Part shown: piece after piece, positions 5,684 through 48,819 of the stretch
How the letters are laid out: each line of letters begins with the position of its first letter
Position numbering within the stretch: position 1 is the first letter of the stretch
NCBI RefSeq assembly: GCF_054482595.1
Contig: NZ_CM137008.1
Direction: 5' to 3' (one strand)
DNA: 64,000 nt
Notes under the pieces: generated by a model
What the model was told of the DNA's origin: nothing
The model's database searches: none
The model's input: the letters and a program-made list of their open reading frames with translations, nothing else
Made by a program: the position numbers and the translations under genes

Positions 5684-6283
5684 TCAGAATTTATAACCGA
5701 CACCCACGATGAAACCGTCAGTGCGCCAGTCGCCACTGCCGGAACCTTCATAAGCGACATCAATGGCCACCGATTCGGTCGGGTTAAACTGCACGCCAGC
5801 TCCCCACGCCAGAGACGTGTTGCTGTGGCGACCGTCATCACTTCCGGTCAGCACATCGTGCGTTTTCCCCTTGCTGTCGGTCACCTGCAGATAATCCCCG
5901 GAGAAGGTCGAAACACGGCTGTAAGCCACCCCCGCCATCGCATACGCGCTGAACCATTCATTCACGCGCACAGACGGCCCCGCCATCACGCTGAACCAGC
6001 GGTTACGCACGGAATCTTCATGCCAGCGGGTATCGCTGTAATGCGTTTTTTGTTCATCTTCTGCGTCGGCATAACTGAAAGACGTAATCAGCCCCAGCGT
6101 GTCCGTAAATTCATAACGGTATTTCACGTTAATCCCGTTCAGATTATCGCTGCCGGGTGCGTTCGTACGGGCATGAAGATACCCTGCGCTCAGTGTGGAC
6201 TGATGTTCAGACGCCCATGCAGGCGCACCGGATACGGCCAGACAGATGGCTGCGGAAAAAATGGCTGCACAAACTTTACGCAT
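5684..6283 (-). CDS. lom: Outer membrane protein Lom (Ail/Lom family)
   Basis: 199-aa ORF with signal peptide, beta-barrel-like sequence, position between J and stf as in lambda. Confidence 0.85.
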   Translation of the reverse strand: MRKVCAAIFSAAICLAVSGAPAWASEHQSTLSAGYLHARTNAPGSDNLNGINVKYRYEFTDTLGLITSFSYADAEDEQKTHYSDTRWHEDSVRNRWFSVMAGPSVRVNEWFSAYAMAGVAYSRVSTFSGDYLQVTDSKGKTHDVLTGSDDGRHSNTSLAWGAGVQFNPTESVAIDVAYEGSGSGDWRTDGFIVGVGYKF

Positions 6284-6352
6284 AATTACCTCTCGCTTTT
6301 CTGCAATAAAAAAGGCGCCATTTCTGGCGCCCGTATTGGGGTTATAAAAATT

Positions 6353-9300
6353 TCAACTGATACTGATACCGGATGCGGCTTTTTTCGTTACCGAGACCAT
6401 TAAATCACTGATCCATGTTCTGGGCTCTCCACTGCCGCTCGACTGAACTTCAAATGTTAATATTACATCTCCGTCCCCCACTGGCATATCAATGATATTG
6501 CTGTACACGACTGTTGTCCTTTTCGAACCACTAGTGGATTTGTCATAGATTACATTGCCATTTTTGCGCACAATTAATCTGCAGGTATCGTAGATATTAG
6601 CGCCATCATTTCTACTAAAATATGGTGGCGCACCGTACATGATTGGTTGAATTATAATCTGCCTGTCAAAGGCATGATCGTCCTTAATATGAACGGTAAG
6701 TGAACCCTGTGGGTATTCTCCGGGGTGCGGAAATCGATGCCCTGTCGTTTTTACAAAATCACCACGCACCTGGTTAGCATCAAGCATCCCCTTAATAGTA
6801 CAGCTCTCATTAATCGTGACGTTGTTGAGCGTCCCGGCGTTCGCATTCACACTGCCACTGATATCCGCATTTTTAGCAGTCAGCTTTCCGTCAGGTGTCA
6901 GGGAGAATGCCGGAGGATTGCCACCACTGGTAATCGTGGGAGCAATAAGGAACTTGATCAGCGCCTCATTAATAAACGTCTGTCCGCCCTGTGTGACCAG
7001 TGCAGGAGTGGTGTTACCATTCGCCGGGTTAATAAATGCCACCCGGTCTGCAGCCAGCAGCACCTGACTCTGCATGCCGTCGGGGGTGTTCTCAATACCG
7101 GCACCGATACCCGCAATATAAAGGCGTCCGTCCTGCATCTGCTGCAGCTTCACTGCCCACATGCTGTTCAGGTTATTATTTGTATCAACCTGAACCTTCT
7201 GTATCTGCTGGATCGCTGCACTCTGGTCTTCCAGTTTCTTATTGACGGTCTGTGTTATTTCATTGCTGACATCCGTTATGGACGTCCTGATTTCAGTCAG
7301 GTCAGGCGCAAGCTGACCGTTATCAATCTGCGTCCACAGCTCCTGAGCCAGATGGGTTTTCCCTATCTCTCCTTTGAAAAAATCCAGATAGCCGGACGCA
7401 TCATCACTCGGCTGACCAACAGCCTCCACAAATGCCGATTTGCCAACGGTGTTCACACTGCGGATATAAAAATAATAATCATGGCCCGGTTTGATATTGA
7501 TACTGGCAGCTATCCAGTACAGCGCCGTGCCAAGATAGCGGGCTGTGGTTTCAACCTGCCTGATATCCGCAATCCGCTTTTCCGAGAACCAGAATTCAAA
7601 CTGTACCGTCGGGTCATAAACGGCAAGATGCGGCGTGGCGGTTATCTGAAAATAGCCCGGCGTCAGCTCAATCCGCGACGGCGCTGCCGGTGCGGCAATC
7701 CGGAACGATACCGATGCCGGATCGCCCTGCTGCCCCCAGGCATTTGCCGCCCGGACTGTCAGCCTGTAATTTCCCAGCGCCAGTTGCCTGAAGCGGTATG
7801 TGGTTTCCGTCGTCCGGGCCGTGCTGACCAGCCGTTCACTGCCATCATCCGCAGCCACGGTCAGGCGAAGCAGGAAGTTCACGCCCTTCACCACCTTCGG
7901 CGTGTCCCAGCGCGCCAGCACCTGATATTCCCCGCTGTCTGCGGTGACTTCGGCGGTCAGGTGCTGCACCGCTGGCGGCGTGACACCATTCACCGTGCCG
8001 CTCTGGTCACCGTCAAAGTGCGCCCCGTTATCCACGATGGCCTCTTTTGCCGGTACATGCTGCACGGCGGTGATGGCATACGTGCCGTCGTCGTTCTCAC
8101 GGATACTCACACAGCGGAACAGGCGCTGGCGCAGCGTCGGCAGCTTCAGCCCCCACACGCTGTACTCGGCAACGCCGTCAGGAACCCGGCTCACTTTCAC
8201 CTTCACGCCGTCGGTGACGGACTGGACCTCCACGCTGACCGGATTCCCCTGTCCGTCAACCAGGCTTATCAGCGTGGTGCCGGAAGATGGCAGCGTGATT
8301 TCACGGTCGAGCGTCAGTGTCCGGGTCTGGCTGTTCACCGCCAGCACACGCCCGCCGATGCTGATCCCCGCATAGTCATCATCGCAGATTTCAATGACAT
8401 CGCCCGGTACATGGCGAAGCCCTTCTGCGCCCACGCTGAAATCCACGGTCTGCGTTTCCAGCAGCTCCGTTTTAATCAGCCACAGCCCGGCTCGGTGTGC
8501 CTGCCCCCGGCTGGTACAGCCAAAGGCGTCCATCTTCGTGACATTACGACCGTAACGGAGAATGGCCTGCGTATCTTCAACAAGCTCTGTCGCCGTCTCC
8601 CAGCCGTTATTCGGGTCAATCCAGTTCACCTCAACGGCATTATGGCGGTCCTTCAGGGCGCTGAAGCTGTAGCGGAACGGCGCGCCATCATCCGGCATCA
8701 CCACATTACTGCGGTTATAGGTCCACACCTTATCCGACGGTCGGTCCTGCACGAACGTCAGCGTCTGCCCGTTCCATACCGGCATACAGCGCATCGCCGA
8801 GCAGAAATCACTGAGAACATCCCACGCCTTACGCTGTGTGGTCAGGTAGGCATTACAGGTGATGCGCGGCTCCGTGCCACCAAAGCCATCCGGCACCGAC
8901 TGGTCGCAATTCTGGCCGATGACATACAGCGCCCATTTGTCCACATCCGCCGCACCGAGACGCTTCCCCATGCCGTAGCGCGGATGGGTCAGCATATCCC
9001 ACAGACACCAGGCCATGTTATTGCTGTATGCTGGCTTAAACGTTCCGTCCCAGATACCGCTGTATTGTCGCGTCTGCGGGTTATAGTTCGACGGCACCTG
9101 CAGAATGCGCCCGCGAAGATGATAATTACGACTCACCTGCTGGCTGCCGAACTGCTCCGAGTCCACCTGTACGCCAACCAGTGCCGTGTTCGGGTAGCAC
9201 TGTTTCACATCGATGATTTCGGTGTATGACGACCAGAGCGTTTTGTTCTGCAACTGGTCTGTGGTGCTGTCCGGTGTCATCCTGCGCATCCGGATATTGA

Positions 9301-37407: not shown

Positions 37408-37680
37408 ATGTCCAGAAAAACAAAATTTAAAGGCACCGCAGCTTCTCGCCGTAGAGCCCGTCGCGCAAATCTGCAAAGTCAGGAGGCGATCAGCTCCGAC
37501 AAGCTACACAGACCAACCCCTTCACGAGTGGTCTTGCAATGCAAGCGCAAACCAGCAATGAGAGCAGAAGTTATAACTCTGACAACGTTGACCAGAAAAT
37601 ATGAAGGTTCAACTTGTCTTCCGAACGTAGCTCTTTACGCGGCAGGCTACCGGAAATCAAAACAACTGACGGCGAGATGA
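37408..37680 (+). CDS. N: N-type transcription antiterminator with N-terminal arginine-rich motif
   Basis: Strong SD gggagg before ATG; MSRKTKFKGTAASRRRARRANLQ arginine-rich motif; position downstream of pL/nutL. Confidence 0.75.
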   Translation: MSRKTKFKGTAASRRRARRANLQSQEAISSDKLHRPTPSRVVLQCKRKPAMRAEVITLTTLTRKYEGSTCLPNVALYAAGYRKSKQLTAR

Positions 37681-39632: not shown

Positions 39633-40418
39633 ATGAGTACAGCACTCGCAACGCTGGCTGGGAAGCTGGCTGAACGCGTCGGCATGGATTCTGTCGACCC
39701 ACAGGAACTGATCACCACTCTTCGCCAGACGGCATTTAAAGGTGATGCCAGCGATGCGCAGTTCATCGCATTGCTGATCGTCGCCAACCAGTACGGCCTT
39801 AATCCGTGGACGAAAGAAATTTACGCCTTCCCTGACAAGCAGAACGGCATCGTTCCGGTGGTGGGCGTTGATGGCTGGTCCCGTATCATCAATGAAAACC
39901 AGCAGTTTGATGGCATGGACTTTGAGCAGGACAATGAATCCTGCACATGCCGGATTTACCGCAAGGACCGCAATCATCCGATCTGCGTTACCGAGTGGAT
40001 GGATGAATGCCGCCGCGAACCATTCAAAACCCGCGAAGGCAGAGAAATCACGGGGCCGTGGCAGTCGCATCCCAAACGGATGTTACGGCATAAAGCCATG
40101 ATTCAGTGTGCCCGTCTCGCCTTCGGATTTGCTGGTATCTATGACAAGGATGAAGCCGAGCGCATTGTCGAAAATACCGCATACACTGCAGAACGTCAGC
40201 CGGAACGCGACATCACTCCGGTTAACGATGAAACCATGCAGGAGATTAACACTCTGCTGATTGCCCTGGATAAAACATGGGATGACGACTTATTGCCGCT
40301 CTGTTCCCAGATATTTCGCCGCGACATTCGAGCATCGTCAGAACTGACACAGGCCGAAGCAGTGAAAGCTCTTGGATTCCTGAAACAGAAAGCCACTGAG
40401 CAGAAGGTGGCAGCATGA
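39633..40418 (+). CDS. bet: Bet (Red-beta single-strand annealing protein)
   Basis: 261-aa ORF, lambda length/sequence. Confidence 0.95.
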
Positions 40419-41095
40419 CACCGGACATTATCCTGCAGCGTACCGGGATCGACGTGAGAGCTGTCGAACAGGGGGATGATGCGTGGCACAAATTACGGCT
40501 CGGCGTCATCACCGCTTCAGAGGTTCACAATGTGATAGCAAAACCCCGCTCCGGAAAGAAATGGCCTGACATGAAAATGTCCTACTTCCACACCCTGCTT
40601 GCCGAGGTTTGCACCGGTGTGGCTCCGGAAGTTAACGCTAAGGCGCTGGCCTGGGGAAAACAGTACGAGAACGACGCCAGAGCCCTCTTTGAGTTCACTT
40701 CCGGCGTGAATGTTACTGAATCCCCGATCATCTATCGCGACGAAAGTATGCGCACCGCCTGCTCTCCCGATGGTTTATGCAGTGACGGCAACGGCCTTGA
40801 ACTGAAATGCCCGTTTACCTCCCGGGATTTCATGAAGTTCCGGCTCGGTGGTTTCGAGGCCATAAAGTCGGCTTACATGGCCCAGGTGCAGTACAGCATG
40901 TGGGTGACGCGAAAAGATGCCTGGTACTTTGCCAACTATGACCCGCGCATGAAGCGTGAAGGCCTGCATTATGTCGTGATTGAGCGGAATGAAAAGTACA
41001 TGGCGAGTTTTGACGAGATGGTGCCGGAGTTCATCGAAAAAATGGACGAGGCACTGGCTGAAATTGGTTTTGTATTTGGGGAGCAATGGCGATGA
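40415..41095 (+). CDS. exo: Exo (Red-alpha 5'-3' exonuclease)
   Basis: 226-aa ORF, lambda length/sequence. Confidence 0.95.
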
Positions 41096-41274
41096 CGCAT
41101 CCTCACGATAATATCCGGGTAGGCGCAATCACTTTCGTCTACTCCGTTACAAAGCGAGGCTGGGTATTTCCCGGCCTTTCTGTTATCAGAAATCCACTGA
41201 AAGCACAGCGGCTGGCTGAGGAGATAAATAATAAACGGGGAGCTGTATGCACAAAGCATCTCCCGTTGAGTTAA
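41092..41274 (+). CDS. Orf60a-like small protein
   Basis: [19 protein letters not shown]; lambda order after exo. Confidence 0.7.
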
Positions 41275-41438
41275 GAACGAGTATCGAGATGGCACATAGC
41301 CTCGCTCAAATTGGAGTCAGGTTTGTGCCAATACCAGTAGAAACAGACGAAGAATTTCATACGTTAGCCGCATCCCTTTCACAAAAGCTGGAAATGATGG
41401 TGGCGAAAGCAGAAGCAGATGAGAGAGACCAGGTATGA
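41247..41438 (+). CDS. Orf63-like small protein
   Basis: 63-aa ORF, lambda order. Confidence 0.7.
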   Translation: MHKASPVELRTSIEMAHSLAQIGVRFVPIPVETDEEFHTLAASLSQKLEMMVAKAEADERDQV

Positions 41439-41514
41439 CAACCACGGAATGCATTTTTCTGGCAGCGGGCTTCATATTCTGTGTGCTTATGCTTGCCGAC
41501 ATGGGACTTGTTCA

Positions 41515-41730
41515 ATGACACCTCAGCAGGAAAACGCCCTTCGCAGTATTGCCCGTCAGGCTAATTCTGAAATCAAAAAAGCCAGACAGCAGTTTCCGGA
41601 TAAAAACGTCGATGACATTTGCCGTAGCGTACTGAAGAAGCACCGCGAAACGGTAACGCTGATGGGATTCACACCGACTCATTTAAGCCTGGCGATCGGC
41701 ATGTTAAACGGCGTCTTTAAGGAACGGTGA
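41515..41730 (+). CDS. Orf61-like small protein (start uncertain)
   Basis: MTPQQENALRSIARQANSEIKKARQQF; within a longer track ORF. Confidence 0.6.
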   Translation: MTPQQENALRSIARQANSEIKKARQQFPDKNVDDICRSVLKKHRETVTLMGFTPTHLSLAIGMLNGVFKER

Positions 41731-41828
41731 GCATGAAAAACAAAATCATCATGGAGCTACAGGCTCCTTTTTTATTATTCGCATTCACCCTCAAGCGTAT
41801 TAACCAACAATTCAGGGATTAATGAAAG

Positions 41829-42050
41829 ATGGCAGACATCATTGATTCAGCATCAGAAATTGAAGAATTACAGCGCAATACAGCAATAAAAATGCGTCGT
41901 CTGAACTACCAGACTATATCCGCCACTCATTGTTGTGAGTGTGGCGATCCCATAGATGAACGAAGACGCCTGGTCGTTCAGGGTTGTCGGACTTGTGCAA
42001 GTTGCCAGGAGGATCTGGAGCTTATCAGTAAACAGAGAGGTTCGAAGTGA
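41829..42050 (+). CDS. TraR/DksA-family C4 zinc-finger protein (lambda Orf73-like)
   Basis: 73 aa with CxxC...CxxC motif (CCECG ... CRTCASC). Confidence 0.8.
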   Translation: MADIIDSASEIEELQRNTAIKMRRLNYQTISATHCCECGDPIDERRRLVVQGCRTCASCQEDLELISKQRGSK

Positions 42051-42454
42051 GCGAAATTAACTCTCAGGCACTGCGTGAAGCGGCAGAGAAAGCCGGTGAA
42101 GATAAGTGGCAGGCTAAAAAAATAAATGGTGATTTTTTCGTTATTCGTCACGGTAGTTATACAAGACAGCATGGCTACACATCGTATCAACCCATTGCGG
42201 AGATTGATTGTAAGCCAGTCCGGGATTTTGTTGCCAAGGCTAATCCGGCTACCGTGCTGGAATTACTGGATGAACTGGAAGCAGCAAAAAAGCGCATTGC
42301 AGAACTGGAAGCGCGGGAAATACTGCTCCCGGAACGTAGCAGCATGCTTCATCGAACAGATTTTCACGATGATTACCAAACGGTAATGGCATACAAAGTT
42401 TCTGAAGTCATCGATGCAATCCGCGCTACTGGCATTCGCATCAAAGGAGAGTGA
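42047..42454 (+). CDS. Hypothetical early-left protein (possibly Ea22-like)
   Basis: 135-aa ORF, coiled-coil segment; no firm motif. Confidence 0.5.
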   Translation: MSEINSQALREAAEKAGEDKWQAKKINGDFFVIRHGSYTRQHGYTSYQPIAEIDCKPVRDFVAKANPATVLELLDELEAAKKRIAELEAREILLPERSSMLHRTDFHDDYQTVMAYKVSEVIDAIRATGIRIKGE

Positions 42455-43211
42455 GATGATTCACTACCACGGTGGGCCTATTACTCCTGATACGTGCGCA
42501 ATGAGGGCATGGAAAGGGCGACATGCGTTTATCAGTTTTGCGCATTCAGGCCAGATCAATCTCGCGGCTGAATACTGTCAGTCGTTCGCGCTGGACAACG
42601 GTGCATTCACCGCCTGGAAAGCAGCTGGCAAAAACAAAATCGACTGGAGCGATTACTACGAGTTTGTTGCTCGCTGGAAGAATCACCCAGGATTCGATTT
42701 TGCCATTATCCCGGATATTATTGATGGCGGAGAGGAGGAAAATGATGCGCTTCTGAATGAGTGGCCTCACGGAAAACTAGCTGGCGTTCCAGTGTGGCAC
42801 ATGAATGAAAGTGACGCGCGATTTATTCATTTGTGCAATGAGTTTCCGCGAGTGGCTATCGGTAGTTGTGGCGACTATGACGTAAAGCGCCCAACTCTTG
42901 CGGTAGCCAGAATGAAAGACCTGATTCGTCACATTGTTGATGGGCATGGTCAGCCGGTTACGAAACTACATGGATTGCGCATGTTAAATCCGCTGATATT
43001 CACAAAATTACCCTTAGCCAGCGCAGATAGTACGAACGTCGCTCGAAACATCGGTATTGATAAAGCCTGGTCTAGGGCTTATGCACCTGCAAGTAAAGAG
43101 ACACGCGCAGCATTAATGGTAGAACGGATTGAGGCACACAATAGCCCTGGTTCTCTTGCGTATTGTGAACAACGCGACCGCTTTGAAATGCAATTGCAAC
43201 TAGCAGTTTAA
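42414..43211 (+). CDS. Hypothetical protein (likely start MIHYHGG at 42456; about 251 aa)
   Basis: Long ORF with typical codon usage; no motif I can assign with confidence. Confidence 0.6.
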   Translation: MQSALLAFASKESEMIHYHGGPITPDTCAMRAWKGRHAFISFAHSGQINLAAEYCQSFALDNGAFTAWKAAGKNKIDWSDYYEFVARWKNHPGFDFAIIPDIIDGGEEENDALLNEWPHGKLAGVPVWHMNESDARFIHLCNEFPRVAIGSCGDYDVKRPTLAVARMKDLIRHIVDGHGQPVTKLHGLRMLNPLIFTKLPLASADSTNVARNIGIDKAWSRAYAPASKETRAALMVERIEAHNSPGSLAYCEQRDRFEMQLQLAV

Positions 43212-43221
43212 GGACTAACAA

Positions 43222-44019
43222 ATGACCACTATTACCAAAGAACGTATTGAATTGTTCATTAAAAATCCGCTTGAAAACGGACTTACTCGTGGCGAACAAA
43301 TGGAACTGGCACGAATTGCACTGGCATCACTGGAACGCGAACTGATTCGCCACGAGCATGCCAAATGGTCTGACTCCACATTTGGCTGCGTTGGCCCCAT
43401 TGGTCCACTGAAACACCTCTCAAAAGAGGCTCTGGAAGCCGCAGCCGAACCAGACGATCTCAGCGAGTGGGCTGATATGCATTTCCTGTTGTGGGATGCA
43501 CAGCGCCGTGCTGGCATCAGCGATGCTGAAATTACCGCTGCTATGGAAGATAAATTGAAGATCAACATGGAGCGCCAGTGGCCTGAACCAATAGATGGTG
43601 AGCCTCGCTTGCACATTAAAGAACCCGGCAACTCTCCGGTAATTCCGGATGGTTTATCCACGGTATGCGCTGAGGCTTATCAGGTTGTAGGAGTTATGGC
43701 AGATGCGCTTGGTGTATTCGGTGATGCAGCAGTACAGAAAGTTCTGGATAACCTGTCACAGCAAAAACTTGTTCACAGAGATGTGCTGCCGTTCTCGCTT
43801 CCGGTGACTCCGGATGGTTGGATAAGCTGTAGTGAGCGAATGCCGAAAGAAACGGGTGACATTATTGTTGTTTCGGATGGCATTGTAATGTCCGGGATTT
43901 CTTATTCTCGTCGTGACGGGTTCTATATAGCCGCATTGGAGTACGACGACGATGAGCCAATTGGCGGTGTAACCCACTGGATGCCTCTACCAGAACCGCC
44001 TCGATTAAAGGAGCTATAA
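43222..44019 (+). CDS. Phage protein with C-terminal DUF551-like domain (N-terminal part possibly DUF550-like)
   Basis: 265-aa ORF; C-terminal W..C.ERMP ... VTHWMPLPEPP pattern typical of DUF551. Confidence 0.6.
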   Translation: MTTITKERIELFIKNPLENGLTRGEQMELARIALASLERELIRHEHAKWSDSTFGCVGPIGPLKHLSKEALEAAAEPDDLSEWADMHFLLWDAQRRAGISDAEITAAMEDKLKINMERQWPEPIDGEPRLHIKEPGNSPVIPDGLSTVCAEAYQVVGVMADALGVFGDAAVQKVLDNLSQQKLVHRDVLPFSLPVTPDGWISCSERMPKETGDIIVVSDGIVMSGISYSRRDGFYIAALEYDDDEPIGGVTHWMPLPEPPRLKEL

Positions 44020-44133
44020 TAGTGAACTATTATATCTATTTGTATTAAAAGAGTTTTTATAAAATAAATCTTCCAAAGCATGTAAAAACACTGTTAATCT
44101 TAACGTGTGTGAAACGTGAAGAGAGGTGTTGAA

Positions 44134-44415
44134 ATGAGCATTCATGATTTGTGTGAAGATCAAGAGCAATGGGCTATGCAGACCCTTATGGGATCAGGAG
44201 TTCTTGCAAGGTGCAGAATCCATAACGATGTAATTTTAGACAGCGGAAATGATGCTTCTTCTGCTTATAAATTAGGAACTTACCTATATCAAAAAGATAA
44301 TAGCTGCAACTTATTCAATACTCTTACTGAAGCCCGCGACGCAATAAAGGATGCATATGAATCGTATTGTGGGATCGATGATTGCCCACAATGCTCAAAA
44401 TACATTGACGATTAA
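44134..44415 (+). CDS. ea8.5: Ea8.5-like protein (93 aa; Cys-containing)
   Basis: Length matches lambda Ea8.5; C-terminal CPQC...IDD motif; start placed at MSIHDL. Confidence 0.6.
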   Translation: MSIHDLCEDQEQWAMQTLMGSGVLARCRIHNDVILDSGNDASSAYKLGTYLYQKDNSCNLFNTLTEARDAIKDAYESYCGIDDCPQCSKYIDD

Positions 44416-44503
44416 TAATATGAACAAGTAACTATCCTCGCACTCGCGGGGATTTCTTTTATCTGAACTCGCTACGGCGAGTTTTGTTTTATGGAGATGA
44501 TAA

Positions 44504-44671
44504 ATGCACTTCCGAGTTACAGGTGAATGGAATGGAGAACCATTCAACAGAGTTATCGAAGCCGAGAACATCAGCGACTGCTATGACCACTGGATGCTGT
44601 GGGCGCAGATAGCACATGCAGACGTAACCAATATTCGAATTGAAGAACTGAAAGAACACCAAGCCGCCTGA
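44504..44671 (+). CDS. Small ORF (55 aa) upstream of xis, followed by hairpin/T-run
   Basis: Manual translation MHFRVTGEWNGEPFNRVIEAENISDCYDHWMLWAQIAHADVTNIRIEELKEHQAA; below track threshold. Confidence 0.45.
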   Translation: MHFRVTGEWNGEPFNRVIEAENISDCYDHWMLWAQIAHADVTNIRIEELKEHQAA

Positions 44672-44710
44672 TGGCGGTTTTTTCTTGCGTGTAATTGCGG
44701 AGACTTTGCG

Positions 44711-44929
44711 ATGTACTTGACACTTCAGGAGTGGAACGCACGCCAGCGACGCCCAAGAAGCCTTGAAACAGTTCGTCGATGGGTACGCGAGTGCAGGATA
44801 TTCCCTCCTCCGGTTAAGGATGGAAGAGAGTATCTGTTCCACGAATCAGCGGTAAAGGTTGACTTAAATCGACCAGTAACAGGTAGCCTTTTGAAGAGGA
44901 TCAGAAATGGGAAGAAGGCGAAGTCATGA
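44711..44929 (+). CDS. xis: Excisionase Xis
   Basis: 72-aa ORF MYLTLQEWNARQRRPRSLETVRRWVRECRIFPPPV matches lambda Xis; 23-nt overlap with int. Confidence 0.95.
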   Translation: MYLTLQEWNARQRRPRSLETVRRWVRECRIFPPPVKDGREYLFHESAVKVDLNRPVTGSLLKRIRNGKKAKS

Positions 44930-45980
44930 GCGCCGGGATTTACCCCCTAACCTTTATATAAGAAACAATGGATATTACTGCTACAGGGACCCAAGGACGG
45001 GTAAAGAGTTTGGATTAGGCCGAGACAGGAGGATAGCAATCACTGAAGCAATACAGGCCAATATTGAGTTACTCTCAGACAGCGGACGCAAATCACTGAT
45101 AGACAGAATTAAAGGCGGTGACGCAATCACTCTTCATGTGTGGCTTGACCGATATGAAACAATCCTCACCGAAAGGGGGATCAGGCCGAAAACTCTACTC
45201 GACTACGCCAGCAAAATCAGGGCAATCCGAAGAAAATTGCCGGACAAACCGCTCACTGACATATCAACGAAAGAAGTGGCAGCAATGCTAAACACCTACG
45301 TAGCAGAAGGTAAAGCAGCTTCCGCAAAATTAATCAGGTCAACCCTTGTTGACGTTTTTCGTGAAGCAATAGCCGAGGGGCATGTGGCAACGAATCCGGT
45401 AACAGCAACCCGTACAGCAAAGTCAGAAGTAAGGCGCTCAAGGCTGACAGCTAATGAGTATGTCGAGATTTACCATGCAGCCGAACCTCTCCCTATCTGG
45501 CTAAGGCTGGCGATGGATTTGGCCGTCGTTACAGGGCAGAGAGTCGGCGATTTGTGCAGAATGAAATGGTCAGACATAAACGACAACCATCTTCACATTA
45601 AACAGAGTAAAACAGGGGCTAAACTCGCCATTCCGCTAACGCTAACGATTGACGCGCTCAATATCTCATTGGCTGATACACTACAGAAATGCAGGGAGGC
45701 CAGCAGCAGTGAAACTATAATCGCATCAAAGCATCACGATCCGCTTTCCCCGAAAACAGTATCAAAGTATTTTACAAAGGCGAGAAATGCATCTGGCCTC
45801 TCATTTGATGGAAACCCGCCAACATTCCATGAACTGCGTAGCCTGTCAGCGAGGCTATACCGGAACCAGATTGGCGATAAGTTTGCTCAACGTCTTCTCG
45901 GGCATAAATCAGATTCAATGGCGGCGCGGTATAGGGACAGCCGTGGACGGGAATGGGACAAAATTGAAATCGACAAATGA
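44907..45980 (+). CDS. int: Tyrosine integrase Int (lambda-type; N-terminal arm-binding domain lambda-identical, core-binding region divergent)
   Basis: 357-aa ORF; N-terminal ~55 aa identical to remembered lambda Int, divergence after residue ~56, conserved catalytic C-terminus (HELRSL ... LLGH ... Y). Confidence 0.95.
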   Translation: MGRRRSHERRDLPPNLYIRNNGYYCYRDPRTGKEFGLGRDRRIAITEAIQANIELLSDSGRKSLIDRIKGGDAITLHVWLDRYETILTERGIRPKTLLDYASKIRAIRRKLPDKPLTDISTKEVAAMLNTYVAEGKAASAKLIRSTLVDVFREAIAEGHVATNPVTATRTAKSEVRRSRLTANEYVEIYHAAEPLPIWLRLAMDLAVVTGQRVGDLCRMKWSDINDNHLHIKQSKTGAKLAIPLTLTIDALNISLADTLQKCREASSSETIIASKHHDPLSPKTVSKYFTKARNASGLSFDGNPPTFHELRSLSARLYRNQIGDKFAQRLLGHKSDSMAARYRDSRGREWDKIEIDK

Positions 45981-46074
45981 TTTTATTTTGACTAATAATG
46001 ACCTACTTACATTAATTTACTGATAATTAAAGAGATTTTAAATATACAACTTATTCACCTTAAGTGCACCGACC
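45981..46074. other. Int-proximal prophage/chromosome junction (attL-type site) and torS upstream region
   Basis: 94-bp AT-rich segment between int stop and torS start; core sequence cannot be defined without the other junction. Confidence 0.5.
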
Positions 46075-48819
46075 GTGAATTTAACCCTGACCCGAAGACT
46101 CTGGATGGGCTTTGCCCTGATGGCACTGTTAACCCTGACCAGTACCCTGGTGGGATGGTACAACCTGCGCTTTATCAGCCAGGTGGAAAAAGACAATACT
46201 CAGGCATTGATTCCTACCATGAATATGGCGCGCCAGTTGAGCGAAGCCAGCGCCTGGGAACTTTTCGCCGCGCAGAACCTGACCAGTGCCGATAACGAAA
46301 AGATGTGGCAGGCGCAGGGGCGAATGCTCACCGCACAAAGCCTGAAGATTAATGCGTTGCTGCAAGCGTTACGGGAACAAGGTTTTGATACCACCGCTAT
46401 TGAACAACAGGAGCAGGAGATCTCCCGTTCGTTACGTCAGCAAGGGGAACTGGTGGGGCAGCGTTTGCAACTGCGCCAGCAACAACAGCGACTCAGTCAG
46501 CAGATAGTCGCTGCCGCCGATGAGATCGCACGCCTGGCGCAAGGTCAGGCGAATAATGCGACAACTTCCGCTGGAGCGACCCAGGCCGGGATTTACGATT
46601 TGATCGAACAAGATCAGCGTCAGGCTGCTGAAAGTGCACTCGACCGGCTGATTGATATCGATCTTGAGTATGTTAACCAGATGAATGAACTGCGCCTTAG
46701 CGCCCTGCGGGTGCAGCAAATGGTGATGAATCTGGGGCTGGAACAGATCCAGAAAAATGCGCCAACGCTGGAAAGGCAGCTCAATAATGCGGTGAAAATT
46801 CTGCAACGTCGGCAAATACGCATTGAAGATCCGGGAGTTCGTGCGCAGGTCGCAACAACGTTAACTACCGTTAGCCAATATAGCGATCTGTTGGCGCTGT
46901 TCCAGCAGGACAGTGAAATCAGCAATCACCTGCAAACTCTCGCCCAAAATAATATCGCCCAGTTCGCGCAGTTTAGTAGCGAAGTCAGTCAGCTGGTCGA
47001 CACCATTGAGCTGCGCAATCAGCATGGACTGGCGCATCTGGAAAAAGCCAGTGCACGCGGGCAATACAGCCTGTTATTGCTGGGGATGGTTTCACTTTGC
47101 GCACTGATTCTGATCCTCTGGCGCGTGGTTTATCGCTCAGTCACGCGTCCACTTGCCGAACAAACGCAGGCGCTGCAACGGCTGCTGGACGGTGATATTG
47201 ACTCCCCTTTTCCGGAAACCGCTGGCGTACGGGAGCTGGATACCATCGGGCGGCTGATGGATGCGTTTCGCAGCAGTGTTCATGCACTGAATCGCCACCG
47301 CGAACAGCTGGCGGCGCAGGTCAAAGCACGTACAGCTGAATTGCAGGAACTGGTGATAGAACACCGACAGGCACGGGCGGAAGCAGAAAAAGCCAGCCAG
47401 GCAAAATCGGCGTTTCTGGCGGCGATGAGCCATGAGATCCGCACACCGCTGTACGGTATTCTCGGCACCGCACAGCTACTGGCAGATAACCCCACACTTA
47501 ACGCCCAGCGTGATGATTTGCGGGCAATTACTGACTCTGGTGAATCGTTGCTGACCATCCTCAACGATATTCTCGATTATTCGGCTATCGAAGCAGGTGG
47601 CAAGAATGTTTCGGTCAGCGATGAGCCCTTTGAACCGCGCCCGCTGCTGGAAAGTACCCTGCAATTAATGAGCGGACGGGTGAAAGGTCGCCCGATTCGC
47701 CTGGCAACGGCAATTGCCGATGATGTACCGAGCGCGTTAATGGGCGATCCGCGGCGTATTCGTCAGGTCATTACCAACCTGTTGAGCAACGCCCTGCGTT
47801 TTACTGACGAAGGGCAGATCGTTTTACGTAGCCGTACTGATGGTGAGCAATGGCTGGTCGAAGTGGAAGACAGCGGCTGCGGTATTGATCCCGCGAAACT
47901 GGCAGAAATCTTCCAGCCATTTATTCAGGTAAGTGGCAAACGCGGCGGCACCGGGCTGGGGCTGACTATCAGTAGCCGTCTGGCCCAGGCGATGGGCGGC
48001 GAACTGAGCGCCACCAGCACGCTGGAGGTTGGAAGCTGTTTTTGTTTACGCTTGCCGTTACGTGTTGCCACAGCACCCGCGCCAAAAACAGCCAATCAGG
48101 CGGTGCGTCTGGACGGTTTACGTTTGCTGTTAATTGAAGATAACCCGCTAACCCAGCGAATTACCGTTGAGATGCTGAACACCAGTGGTGCGCAGGTTGT
48201 TGCTATTGGCAATGCCGCGCAGGCTTTAGAGACACTGCAAAATAGCGAACCGTTTGCTGCCGCACTGGTGGATTTTGATCTGCCGGATATCGACGGCATT
48301 ACCCTTGCCCGGCAACTGGCACAGCAATATCCGTCGCTGGTTTTGATTGGCTTTAGCGCTCATGTCATTGACGAAACGCTGCGCCAGCGTACCAGTTCAC
48401 TATTTCGCGGGATTATCCCTAAACCGGTGCCGCGTGAAGTGCTCGGTCAGTTACTGGCGCACTATCTCCACCTGCAAGTCAATAACGATCTACCACTTGA
48501 TGTATCGCAACTCAATGAAGATGCTCAATTAATGGGGACGGAGAAGATCCACGAATGGCTGGCATTATTTAAACAACATGCCCTGCCGCTTCTCGATGAA
48601 ATCGACATTGCCCGCGCCAGCCAGGACAGCGAGAAAATAAAGCGTGCCGCGCATCAGCTAAAAAGCAGTTGCTCGAGTCTGGGAATGCGTAGCGCCAGTC
48701 AGCTATGCGCACAACTGGAGCAGCAGCCATTATCTGCCCCCCTTCCACACGAAGAAATTACACGCAGTGTTGCCGCTCTGGAAGCATGGTTGAATAAGAA
48801 AGACCTGAACGCGATTTGA
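46075..48819 (+). CDS. torS: TMAO sensor histidine kinase TorS
   Basis: 914-aa [24 protein letters not shown]; HisKA/HATPase/receiver/HPt architecture. Confidence 0.95.

Follow-up and report, generated by a model that had tools for sequence, protein, structure and literature searches.

A minimal, zinc-less DpdA-family protein encoded in the early-left operon of a lambda-like Escherichia coli prophage

The early-left (pL) operon of a lambda-like prophage integrated beside torS in an Escherichia coli chromosome encodes a 251-amino acid (aa) protein which is almost certainly an intact enzyme of the DpdA family. The gene, referred to below as dpdA-like, lies in the stretch of 64,000 nucleotides that was analysed (the window; contig NZ_CM137008.1 of NCBI RefSeq assembly GCF_054482595.1). 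Sequence comparison suggests that its product inserts a host-derived 7-deazaguanine into DNA, which we regard as likely but well short of settled, and a meaningful protection from restriction as a result of such insertion seems much less probable than the insertion itself. The initial annotation had proposed a possible nucleobase- or nucleotide-modifying enzyme expressed from pL, and the homology to validated phage DpdA lends support to a predicted activity of this kind. The finding is not a new one, since the protein belongs to a subgroup of phage DpdA proteins that has already been described (Hutinet et al. 2019).

The assignment relies first of all on profile comparisons. A search of PHROGs placed the protein in phrog_887, 'queuine tRNA-ribosyltransferase' (E 3e-101), and the same group takes in the validated DpdA of phage 9g (E 2e-98) together with the proteins of phages 7-11, SEN1 and HK106. 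An alignment of 49 family members matched the single 9g DpdA sequence in hhalign with 98.4% probability (E 5e-15) and the alignment of the 9g family with 99.0% probability over 173 columns (E 8.7e-18). The motifs of the two proteins pair along their lengths: LDNGAF with LDSGAF, PVWHxxE with PCFHAGE, AIGSSG with TLGGMVG, KLHG with KVHG (the histidine being His196 of 9g DpdA) and SADST with SCDSS. Gene fusions add to this picture. One family member, encoded on a phage-like JGI metagenome contig (L008:2840-3847), joins a QueD/PTPS domain to the DpdA-like domain in a protein of 335 aa, and ties the family independently to the 7-deazaguanine pathway. Another, of 421 aa (Logan contig, L009:6001-7266), joins a partial Dam D12 methyltransferase to a DpdA-like part devoid of its first ~38 residues; this gene sits between a TraR/DksA zinc finger gene and gpA of a P2-like prophage, and the SEN1 copy likewise occupies the slot before gpA.

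The name carried by PHROGs and by RefSeq phage records, along with a fold that falls within the tRNA-guanine transglycosylase (TGT) superfamily, would suit a true TGT that reprograms host tRNA modification during infection. We give this reading only a slim chance. The name is inherited from remote homology and comes with no match to the Pfam TGT model, the protein is devoid of the zinc subdomain and of the insertions with which TGT grips tRNA, its nearest validated relative acts on DNA independently of the host Tgt, and E. coli already possesses a Tgt of its own. Comparison of the 49-sequence alignment with E. coli Tgt (a sequence identical to PDB 10fa_A) gave no match in hhalign (0.7% probability), a negative without weight, because the control with the validated DpdA1 profile was equally negative (2.2%) and the test is thus insensitive.

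The residues required for transglycosylation seem to be in place. In bDpdA, the DpdA of the bacterial Dpd system, and in TGT, base exchange proceeds by double displacement, in which one aspartate protonates and expels guanine, a second bonds C1' and the 7-deazaguanine resolves the intermediate, and the base is read by a third aspartate and a histidine and stacked by a phenylalanine (PMC10164549). Positions D47, H172, S189, D191 and S192 are invariant in the 49-sequence alignment, and H5, A50, W54, P86, D87, H115, E118 and G136 are nearly so. Conservation was also counted in a wider set of 95 diverse members, where D47 and H115 are each kept in 92, H172 in 86 and D191 in 83, and the position of F51 is occupied by F or Y in 89. 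D47, D87 and D191, at the ends of strands beta3, beta4 and beta8, align to D72, D114 and D215 of 9g DpdA and would correspond to D95, D130 and D256 of bDpdA. By analogy with bDpdA (PMC10164549), D47 is the probable general acid/base (as D95), F51 the probable base-stacking residue (as F99), D87 the probable base-recognition aspartate (as D130) and D191 the probable nucleophile forming a covalent enzyme-DNA intermediate (as D256). H115 is, judging from the alignment, a probable base-recognition residue. H172 corresponds to the histidine that Hutinet et al. used to separate DpdA from DpdA2 (PMC6884629), and it probably serves as the hydrogen-bond partner of D191, as in the H226/D248 pair of Cap10 (Cap10 preprint). 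Two motifs that the initial annotation had singled out but could not assign find their place here: ALDNGAF comprises residues 45-51 and GSCGDYD residues 136-142, and both belong to active-site loops, the former with the conserved D47 and F51 and the latter with the conserved G136.

The predicted structure agrees with this arrangement. An AlphaFold2 model computed on the 49-sequence alignment (pLDDT 93.1, pTM 0.90) contains eight beta/alpha units, and in this model all conserved residues lie at the C-terminal ends of strands beta3 to beta8, i.e., on the catalytic face of a TIM barrel. The suggestion of a globular enzyme made from the size and composition of the protein is thus borne out by a predicted (beta/alpha)8 barrel. 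The nearest solved neighbours are TGT-type enzymes, which places the protein in the TGT superfamily at the level of fold, and the best structural match is Cap10 of type IV CBASS (PDB 9ntn). Among the predicted viral structures of BFVD, 27 matches were significant; 11 of them are named queuine or queuosine tRNA-ribosyltransferase, the rest are unnamed, and no other function appears. Also matched was a protein of Cellulophaga phage phiST; this phage carries the distant TGT/DpdA homologue by which the DpdA3 subfamily is defined.

The gene itself is well delimited. The open reading frame (ORF) is translated without stops from the N-terminus MIHYHGGPITPDT, and the opposite strand of 42456-43211 contains stops throughout and no minus-strand gene. 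The stop codon of the upstream Ea22-like gene (42452-42454) comes so close to ATG 42456 that translation of the two genes is probably coupled. PGAP annotates the identical 251-aa coding sequence (CDS) in a 100%-identical genome as a 'hypothetical protein' (WP_072650491.1), and hundreds of homologues begin their alignments at residue 1 of this form. Translation, ribosome-binding site, PGAP call and homologues all agree with the protein of roughly 251 aa first annotated at 42456-43211. An in-frame ATG further upstream (42414, giving 265 aa) was rejected as the start on account of the ribosome-binding site, the stop of the neighbouring gene, the PGAP call and the homologue alignments. The existence of more than 7,600 homologous clusters at 90% identity, nearly all without a name, and of 780 representatives at 50% identity (E<=1e-3) puts the ORF beyond chance.

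The closest relatives are found in enterobacterial phages. The protein is 98% identical to that of an Stx1a-converting phage record, and the DNA of the gene and its left-hand neighbours is 99.5% identical to part of that record. Identity reaches 92% to the proteins of BTP1, SPN3UB, S107 and other Salmonella phages (for BTP1 and SPN3UB over 100% of the length), 67% to SfI, 37% to SEN1 and 35% to HK106 and 7-11, and lambdoid and P22-like relatives are widespread in phages of Salmonella, Shigella, Klebsiella, Pantoea and Vibrio. The proteins of BTP1, SPN3UB, SfI and HK106 were catalogued as DpdA in 2019, BTP1, SPN3UB and SfI as DpdA-only phages (Hutinet et al. Supplementary Data 1, PMC6884629). 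The genes matched in HK106 and SEN1 carry exactly the listed accessions (YP_007151699 and YP_009217891), and the matched gene of BTP1 is the sole TGT-annotated gene in the region of that phage that was read; it sits in the early-left operon of BTP1 within the same cassette of Ea22-like, dpdA-like and EaA genes. The literature covered, subscription journals lying outside that coverage, held no study of the BTP1/HK106-type DpdA clade and no work from 2024 onwards on DpdA-only temperate phages. All 11 full-length E. coli matches listed bear the label 'hypothetical protein'.

The allele occurs in 203 of 5,426 complete E. coli genomes (3.7%), with at least 99% identity in 184 of the 203. This distribution bears on the possibility that the gene is a functionless or decaying passenger, a moron remnant, to which we accord hardly any credence. 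Its location in the ea region, which varies among lambdoid phages, and the very low modification found in relatives would fit such a remnant, but the ORF is intact and preceded by a strong ribosome-binding site, the E. coli copies are nearly uniform, the family extends to 780 representatives at 50% identity, and the catalytic residues are kept in 87-97% of its diverse members.

Two observations on the records of relatives may be added. In phage 7-11 the dpdA-like ORF (5950-6690) reaches an upstream ATG and gives 246 aa (MEVRVWGG...). The GenBank form, which starts at 5986 (234 aa), is without the first beta strand, and the longer form restores it. The record OR850331.1 (1,719 bp), labelled 'Staphylococcus phage SA 1298 Kay', contains a gene whose product shares 92% identity with the protein studied here; the record is probably mislabelled or a contaminant sequence.

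The dpdA-like protein probably acts by the same double displacement, as a DNA guanine transglycosylase. D191, positioned by H172, would attack C1', and guanine would be expelled with D47 as the general acid, the enzyme thereby becoming covalently bound to DNA. In the second step, D87 and H115 would recognise a free 7-deazaguanine base, stacked on F51, which would attack this intermediate and stay in DNA. The inserted base would be preQ0 or its amide, 7-amido-7-deazaguanine (ADG), supplied by queuosine biosynthesis in the host (FolE, QueD, QueE, QueC). One would then expect dPreQ0 or dADG at sparse and probably motif-specific sites in phage and possibly host DNA, and these bases could blunt some nucleases. 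None of folE, queD, queE, queC and queF is annotated in the prophage, therefore the base must come from the host. Such a supply is plausible because plasmid DNA of E. coli acquires host preQ0, at 790 per 10^6 nucleotides, when 9g DpdA is expressed there by itself, a reaction that does not require the host Tgt (PMC6884629). As a separate observation, the nin region of the prophage carries a gene with a PAPS-reductase domain (31081-31953, minus strand). Domains of this kind fall in the adenine-nucleotide alpha-hydrolase superfamily, of which QueC is another member.

Several observations weigh against the insertion of 7-deazaguanine into DNA. The protein has no match in Pfam, NCBIfam or PADLOC, nor among PDB sequences searched with phmmer, and none of the 49 aligned members has a meaningful match in Pfam; the family profile retrieved from PDB sequences in HMMER only coiled-coil noise of GCN4 constructs, and Foldseek against the PDB returned generic TIM barrels only. 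The negatives of the aligned members with Pfam and of the family profile with PDB sequences are uninformative, because the profile of the validated 9g DpdA likewise finds nothing in the PDB by HMMER. The CxCxxC zinc motif occurs in 0 of 94 members, which share no conserved cysteine, and the CXCX2CX22H site is correspondingly absent. The zinc-less state does not exclude activity on DNA, since the motif is missing from the validated 9g DpdA as well. Only about 20 residues follow beta8, at the place where bDpdA has the DNA-binding Ins8, a stretch of 128 residues that builds a DNA-binding crescent (PMC10164549), and the isoelectric point of 6.6 is not basic. The only two relatives that have been measured contain traces of modification, and this is dADG instead of preQ0: 0.02% of G in virion DNA of phage 7-11 (PMC6884629) and about 0.13% of G in Pantoea phage MED16, the DNA of which is not protected from the restriction enzymes tested (PMC8306585). 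The MED16 DpdA is 55% identical to the DpdA of SEN1 and SW9, and an HHpred match of 99% to 2ASH has been reported for it. Mycobacteriophage Orion, also DpdA-only, has no modification (PMC6884629).

Such trace levels may also mean that the protein is an active DNA transglycosylase which places rare, sequence-specific ADG marks and does not serve bulk anti-restriction. These marks could mimic the self-mark by which modification-restriction systems of the Dpd type recognise host DNA, or act in regulation or packaging, and the enzyme may take ADG directly. In favour of this reading, which we consider unlikely, are the content of 0.02-0.13% of G that leaves DNA open to the enzymes tested, the presence of the amide dADG in relatives although no phage amidohydrolase is known, the fact that dADG is the mark of the bacterial Dpd system too (PMC10164549), and the strong conservation of catalytic residues despite a trace-level output. 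Additionally, copies in P2-like prophages sit before gpA, one of them fused to the Dam-type methyltransferase domain. The low levels could, however, just reflect a limited supply of host preQ0 under laboratory conditions.

A different acceptor has to be weighed as well. The best structural match, Cap10, is zinc-less and binds a 7-amido-7-deazaguanine moiety. The protein could accordingly have a non-canonical substrate or acceptor, and bind or transfer 7-deazaguanine on a carrier other than DNA, e.g., a protein N-terminus, possibly interfering with host immunity based on 7-deazaguanine (type IV CBASS, QatABCD). We judge this very unlikely: the prophage contains neither a Cap9 (QueC-like) nor a CD-NTase gene and shows no PADLOC match, the sequence-profile link leads to DpdA1 and not to Cap10, the validated 9g DpdA has the same histidine and is also without the zinc motif, and relatives from the family carry dADG in their DNA. 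It is rather improbable, too, that the minimal DpdA of temperate enterobacterial phages is, in place of a bulk anti-restriction enzyme, a specialised transferase that uses ADG, the QueC intermediate, or a deazaguanine borne on another molecule as in Cap10, and that, through rare site-specific marks or a non-DNA acceptor, it evades or sabotages Dpd, type IV CBASS and QatABCD. Insertion of a free, host-derived base into DNA is the reading that we retain.

The genomic setting corresponds to that of a lambda-type early gene. In the stretch compared (40000-46500), the window is 100% identical to E. coli strain 4FM, and positions of annotated prophage genes were obtained by adding 33999 to the coordinate of the reference locus. 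On the plus strand, the genes run in the order cI-like repressor, N, cIII, kil, gam, bet, exo, DUF1317, DUF1382, TraR/DksA zinc finger, Ea22-like, dpdA-like, EaA-like with DUF550 and DUF551, ea8.5-like, xis and int. The dpdA-like gene thus has the orientation of the genes N to exo that precede it and of xis and int that follow, in accordance with the early-left placement proposed initially (coordinates of the features are collected in Table 1). A promoter scan revealed no sigma-70-like promoter just upstream of the gene on the plus strand, so that an own promoter was dropped from consideration, and the TraR/DksA gene is preceded by a terminator-like hairpin at 41753-41767. The lack of a near promoter together with this hairpin implies that expression should depend on N-antiterminated read-through. 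The gene should consequently behave as a delayed-early one, silent in the repressed lysogen and expressed on induction or infection.

Table 1. Positions in the window of the dpdA-like gene, its conserved motifs and selected neighbours.
Feature	Position	Strand	Remark
N antiterminator gene, head of the pL operon	37408..37680	+	~5 kb upstream of the dpdA-like gene
Ead/Ea22-like protein, upstream neighbour	42047..42454	+	same neighbour in BTP1
Shine-Dalgarno sequence AAAGGAG	42443..42449	+	6 nt before ATG 42456
dpdA-like CDS, 251 aa + stop	42456..43211	+	minimal zinc-less TGT-superfamily (beta/alpha)8 barrel (predicted)
ALDNGAF codons (residues 45-51), end of beta3	42588..42608	+	aligns to LDSGAFS of 9g DpdA
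D87 codon (IPDxIDG, just after beta4)	42714..42716	+	conserved in 92/95 members
H115 codon (PVWHxxE, end of beta5)	42798..42800	+	aligns to H141 of 9g DpdA
GSCGDYD codons (residues 136-142), loop after beta6	42861..42881	+	aligns to LGG(M/L)VGAS of 9g DpdA; G136 in 87/95 members
H172 codon (KLHGLR, beta7)	42969..42971	+	pairs with His196 of 9g DpdA (signature histidine of DpdA)
SADST codons (residues 189-193, beta8)	43020..43034	+	aligns to SCDSS of 9g DpdA
EaA-like protein, DUF550 (PF04447, dATP/dGTP pyrophosphohydrolase) + DUF551, downstream neighbour	43222..44019	+

A conserved partner gene was sought among the neighbours and rejected, as these differ among the window and BTP1 (Ea22-like, DUF550), HK106, SEN1 and 7-11. 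Adjacency to a DUF550 gene is common to the window, BTP1 and S107 and absent in HK106, SEN1 and 7-11, so the pairing is not obligatory. This variability speaks also against a role in base removal only, that is, a glycosylase or hydrolase of DNA or nucleotides which excises guanine or a modified base and thereby, for example, damages host DNA or erases host marks. Such a role is very improbable in our view, as the complete base-recognition set of transglycosylases is kept and relatives contain inserted dADG. Transglycosylation of DNA is again the reading preferred.

Other features of the operon deserve a brief mention. The EaA-like gene (43222-44019, plus strand) is an intact ORF of 265 aa, which PGAP annotates in the identical genome as two pieces, a fragment called 'pseudogene' and a shorter CDS. 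Terminator-like hairpins are over-represented in 41000-46200, where 14 were found against 5.2 expected from shuffles, and three of them stand in tandem on the plus strand between the ea8.5-like gene and xis (44434-44680). The small gene for a TraR/DksA-type C4 zinc finger (41829-42050, plus strand) lies shortly upstream of the dpdA-like gene, and a gene of this type is likewise found upstream of the dpdA-like gene in two P2-like prophages (L007:2476-2697 and L009:5777-6004). The recurring neighbour may be mere common content of early operons.

If the protein is active, lambda-, P22- and P2-like prophages of E. coli and Salmonella would modify DNA with a single small gene and the host queuosine pathway, and Stx-converting phages would be among those able to place 7-deazaguanine in DNA. 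This would affect the crossing of restriction barriers, the nanopore sequencing of phage DNA and the exposure of that DNA to newly described 7-deazaguanine-DNA glycosylases (bioRxiv 10.1101/2025.10.29.685425). The prophage offers the best genetic system for the role of DpdA in DpdA-only temperate phages, being of the lambda type and residing in E. coli, for which que mutants are at hand; a queC deletion leads to accumulation of CDG and a queF deletion to that of preQ0.

Among known systems, the gene stands closest to the DpdA-only phages of gamma-proteobacteria, whose DpdA was placed by Hutinet et al. 2019 in their group 3 (PMC6884629) and forms the cluster 'DpdA/TGT_1' in the paper on MED16 (PMC8306585), with BTP1, SPN3UB, SfI, HK106, SEN1, 7-11 and MED16 as members. 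Like these, it is a lone early-operon gene with no phage preQ0 genes and encodes a protein of the same size and with the same motifs; nothing substantive differs, and the copy described here simply resides in a lambda-like E. coli prophage at torS. The phage DpdA1 proteins of 9g and CAjan, validated as preQ0 DNA transglycosylases, share with it the LDxGAF motif, the xHG motif with His196, the xDS motif and the zinc-less state. The 9g protein (317 aa) is larger by about 40 N-terminal residues and a longer C-terminus, and its gene adjoins folE, queD, queE and gat-queC, whereas the dpdA-like gene stands alone and would depend on the host for the base. Phages of the 9g/CAjan type have up to 25-30% of G modified (PMC6884629).

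More distant are the bacterial enzymes. The bDpdA of the Dpd system of Salmonella Montevideo (PDB 7ui4) has 413 aa, the insertions Ins1, Ins2, Ins3 and Ins8 and a CXCX2CX22H zinc site, and needs the DpdB ATPase. The prophage protein lacks both the insertions and the zinc site, the prophage contains no dpdB, dpdC or dpdD-K, and no match to bDpdA or defence models was found in NCBIfam or PADLOC. Cap10 of type IV CBASS works with Cap9 and with a CD-NTase that carries the base on its N-terminus, a tail of the form M(G/S)G(G/S)GG. In Cap10 the nucleic-acid surface has been reshaped to bind protein, and the two enzymes have in common just the fold and the zinc-less Asp/His active site. Compared with bacterial Tgt (PF01702), the dpdA-like protein is about 125 residues shorter and has neither the zinc subdomain nor the N-terminal lid.

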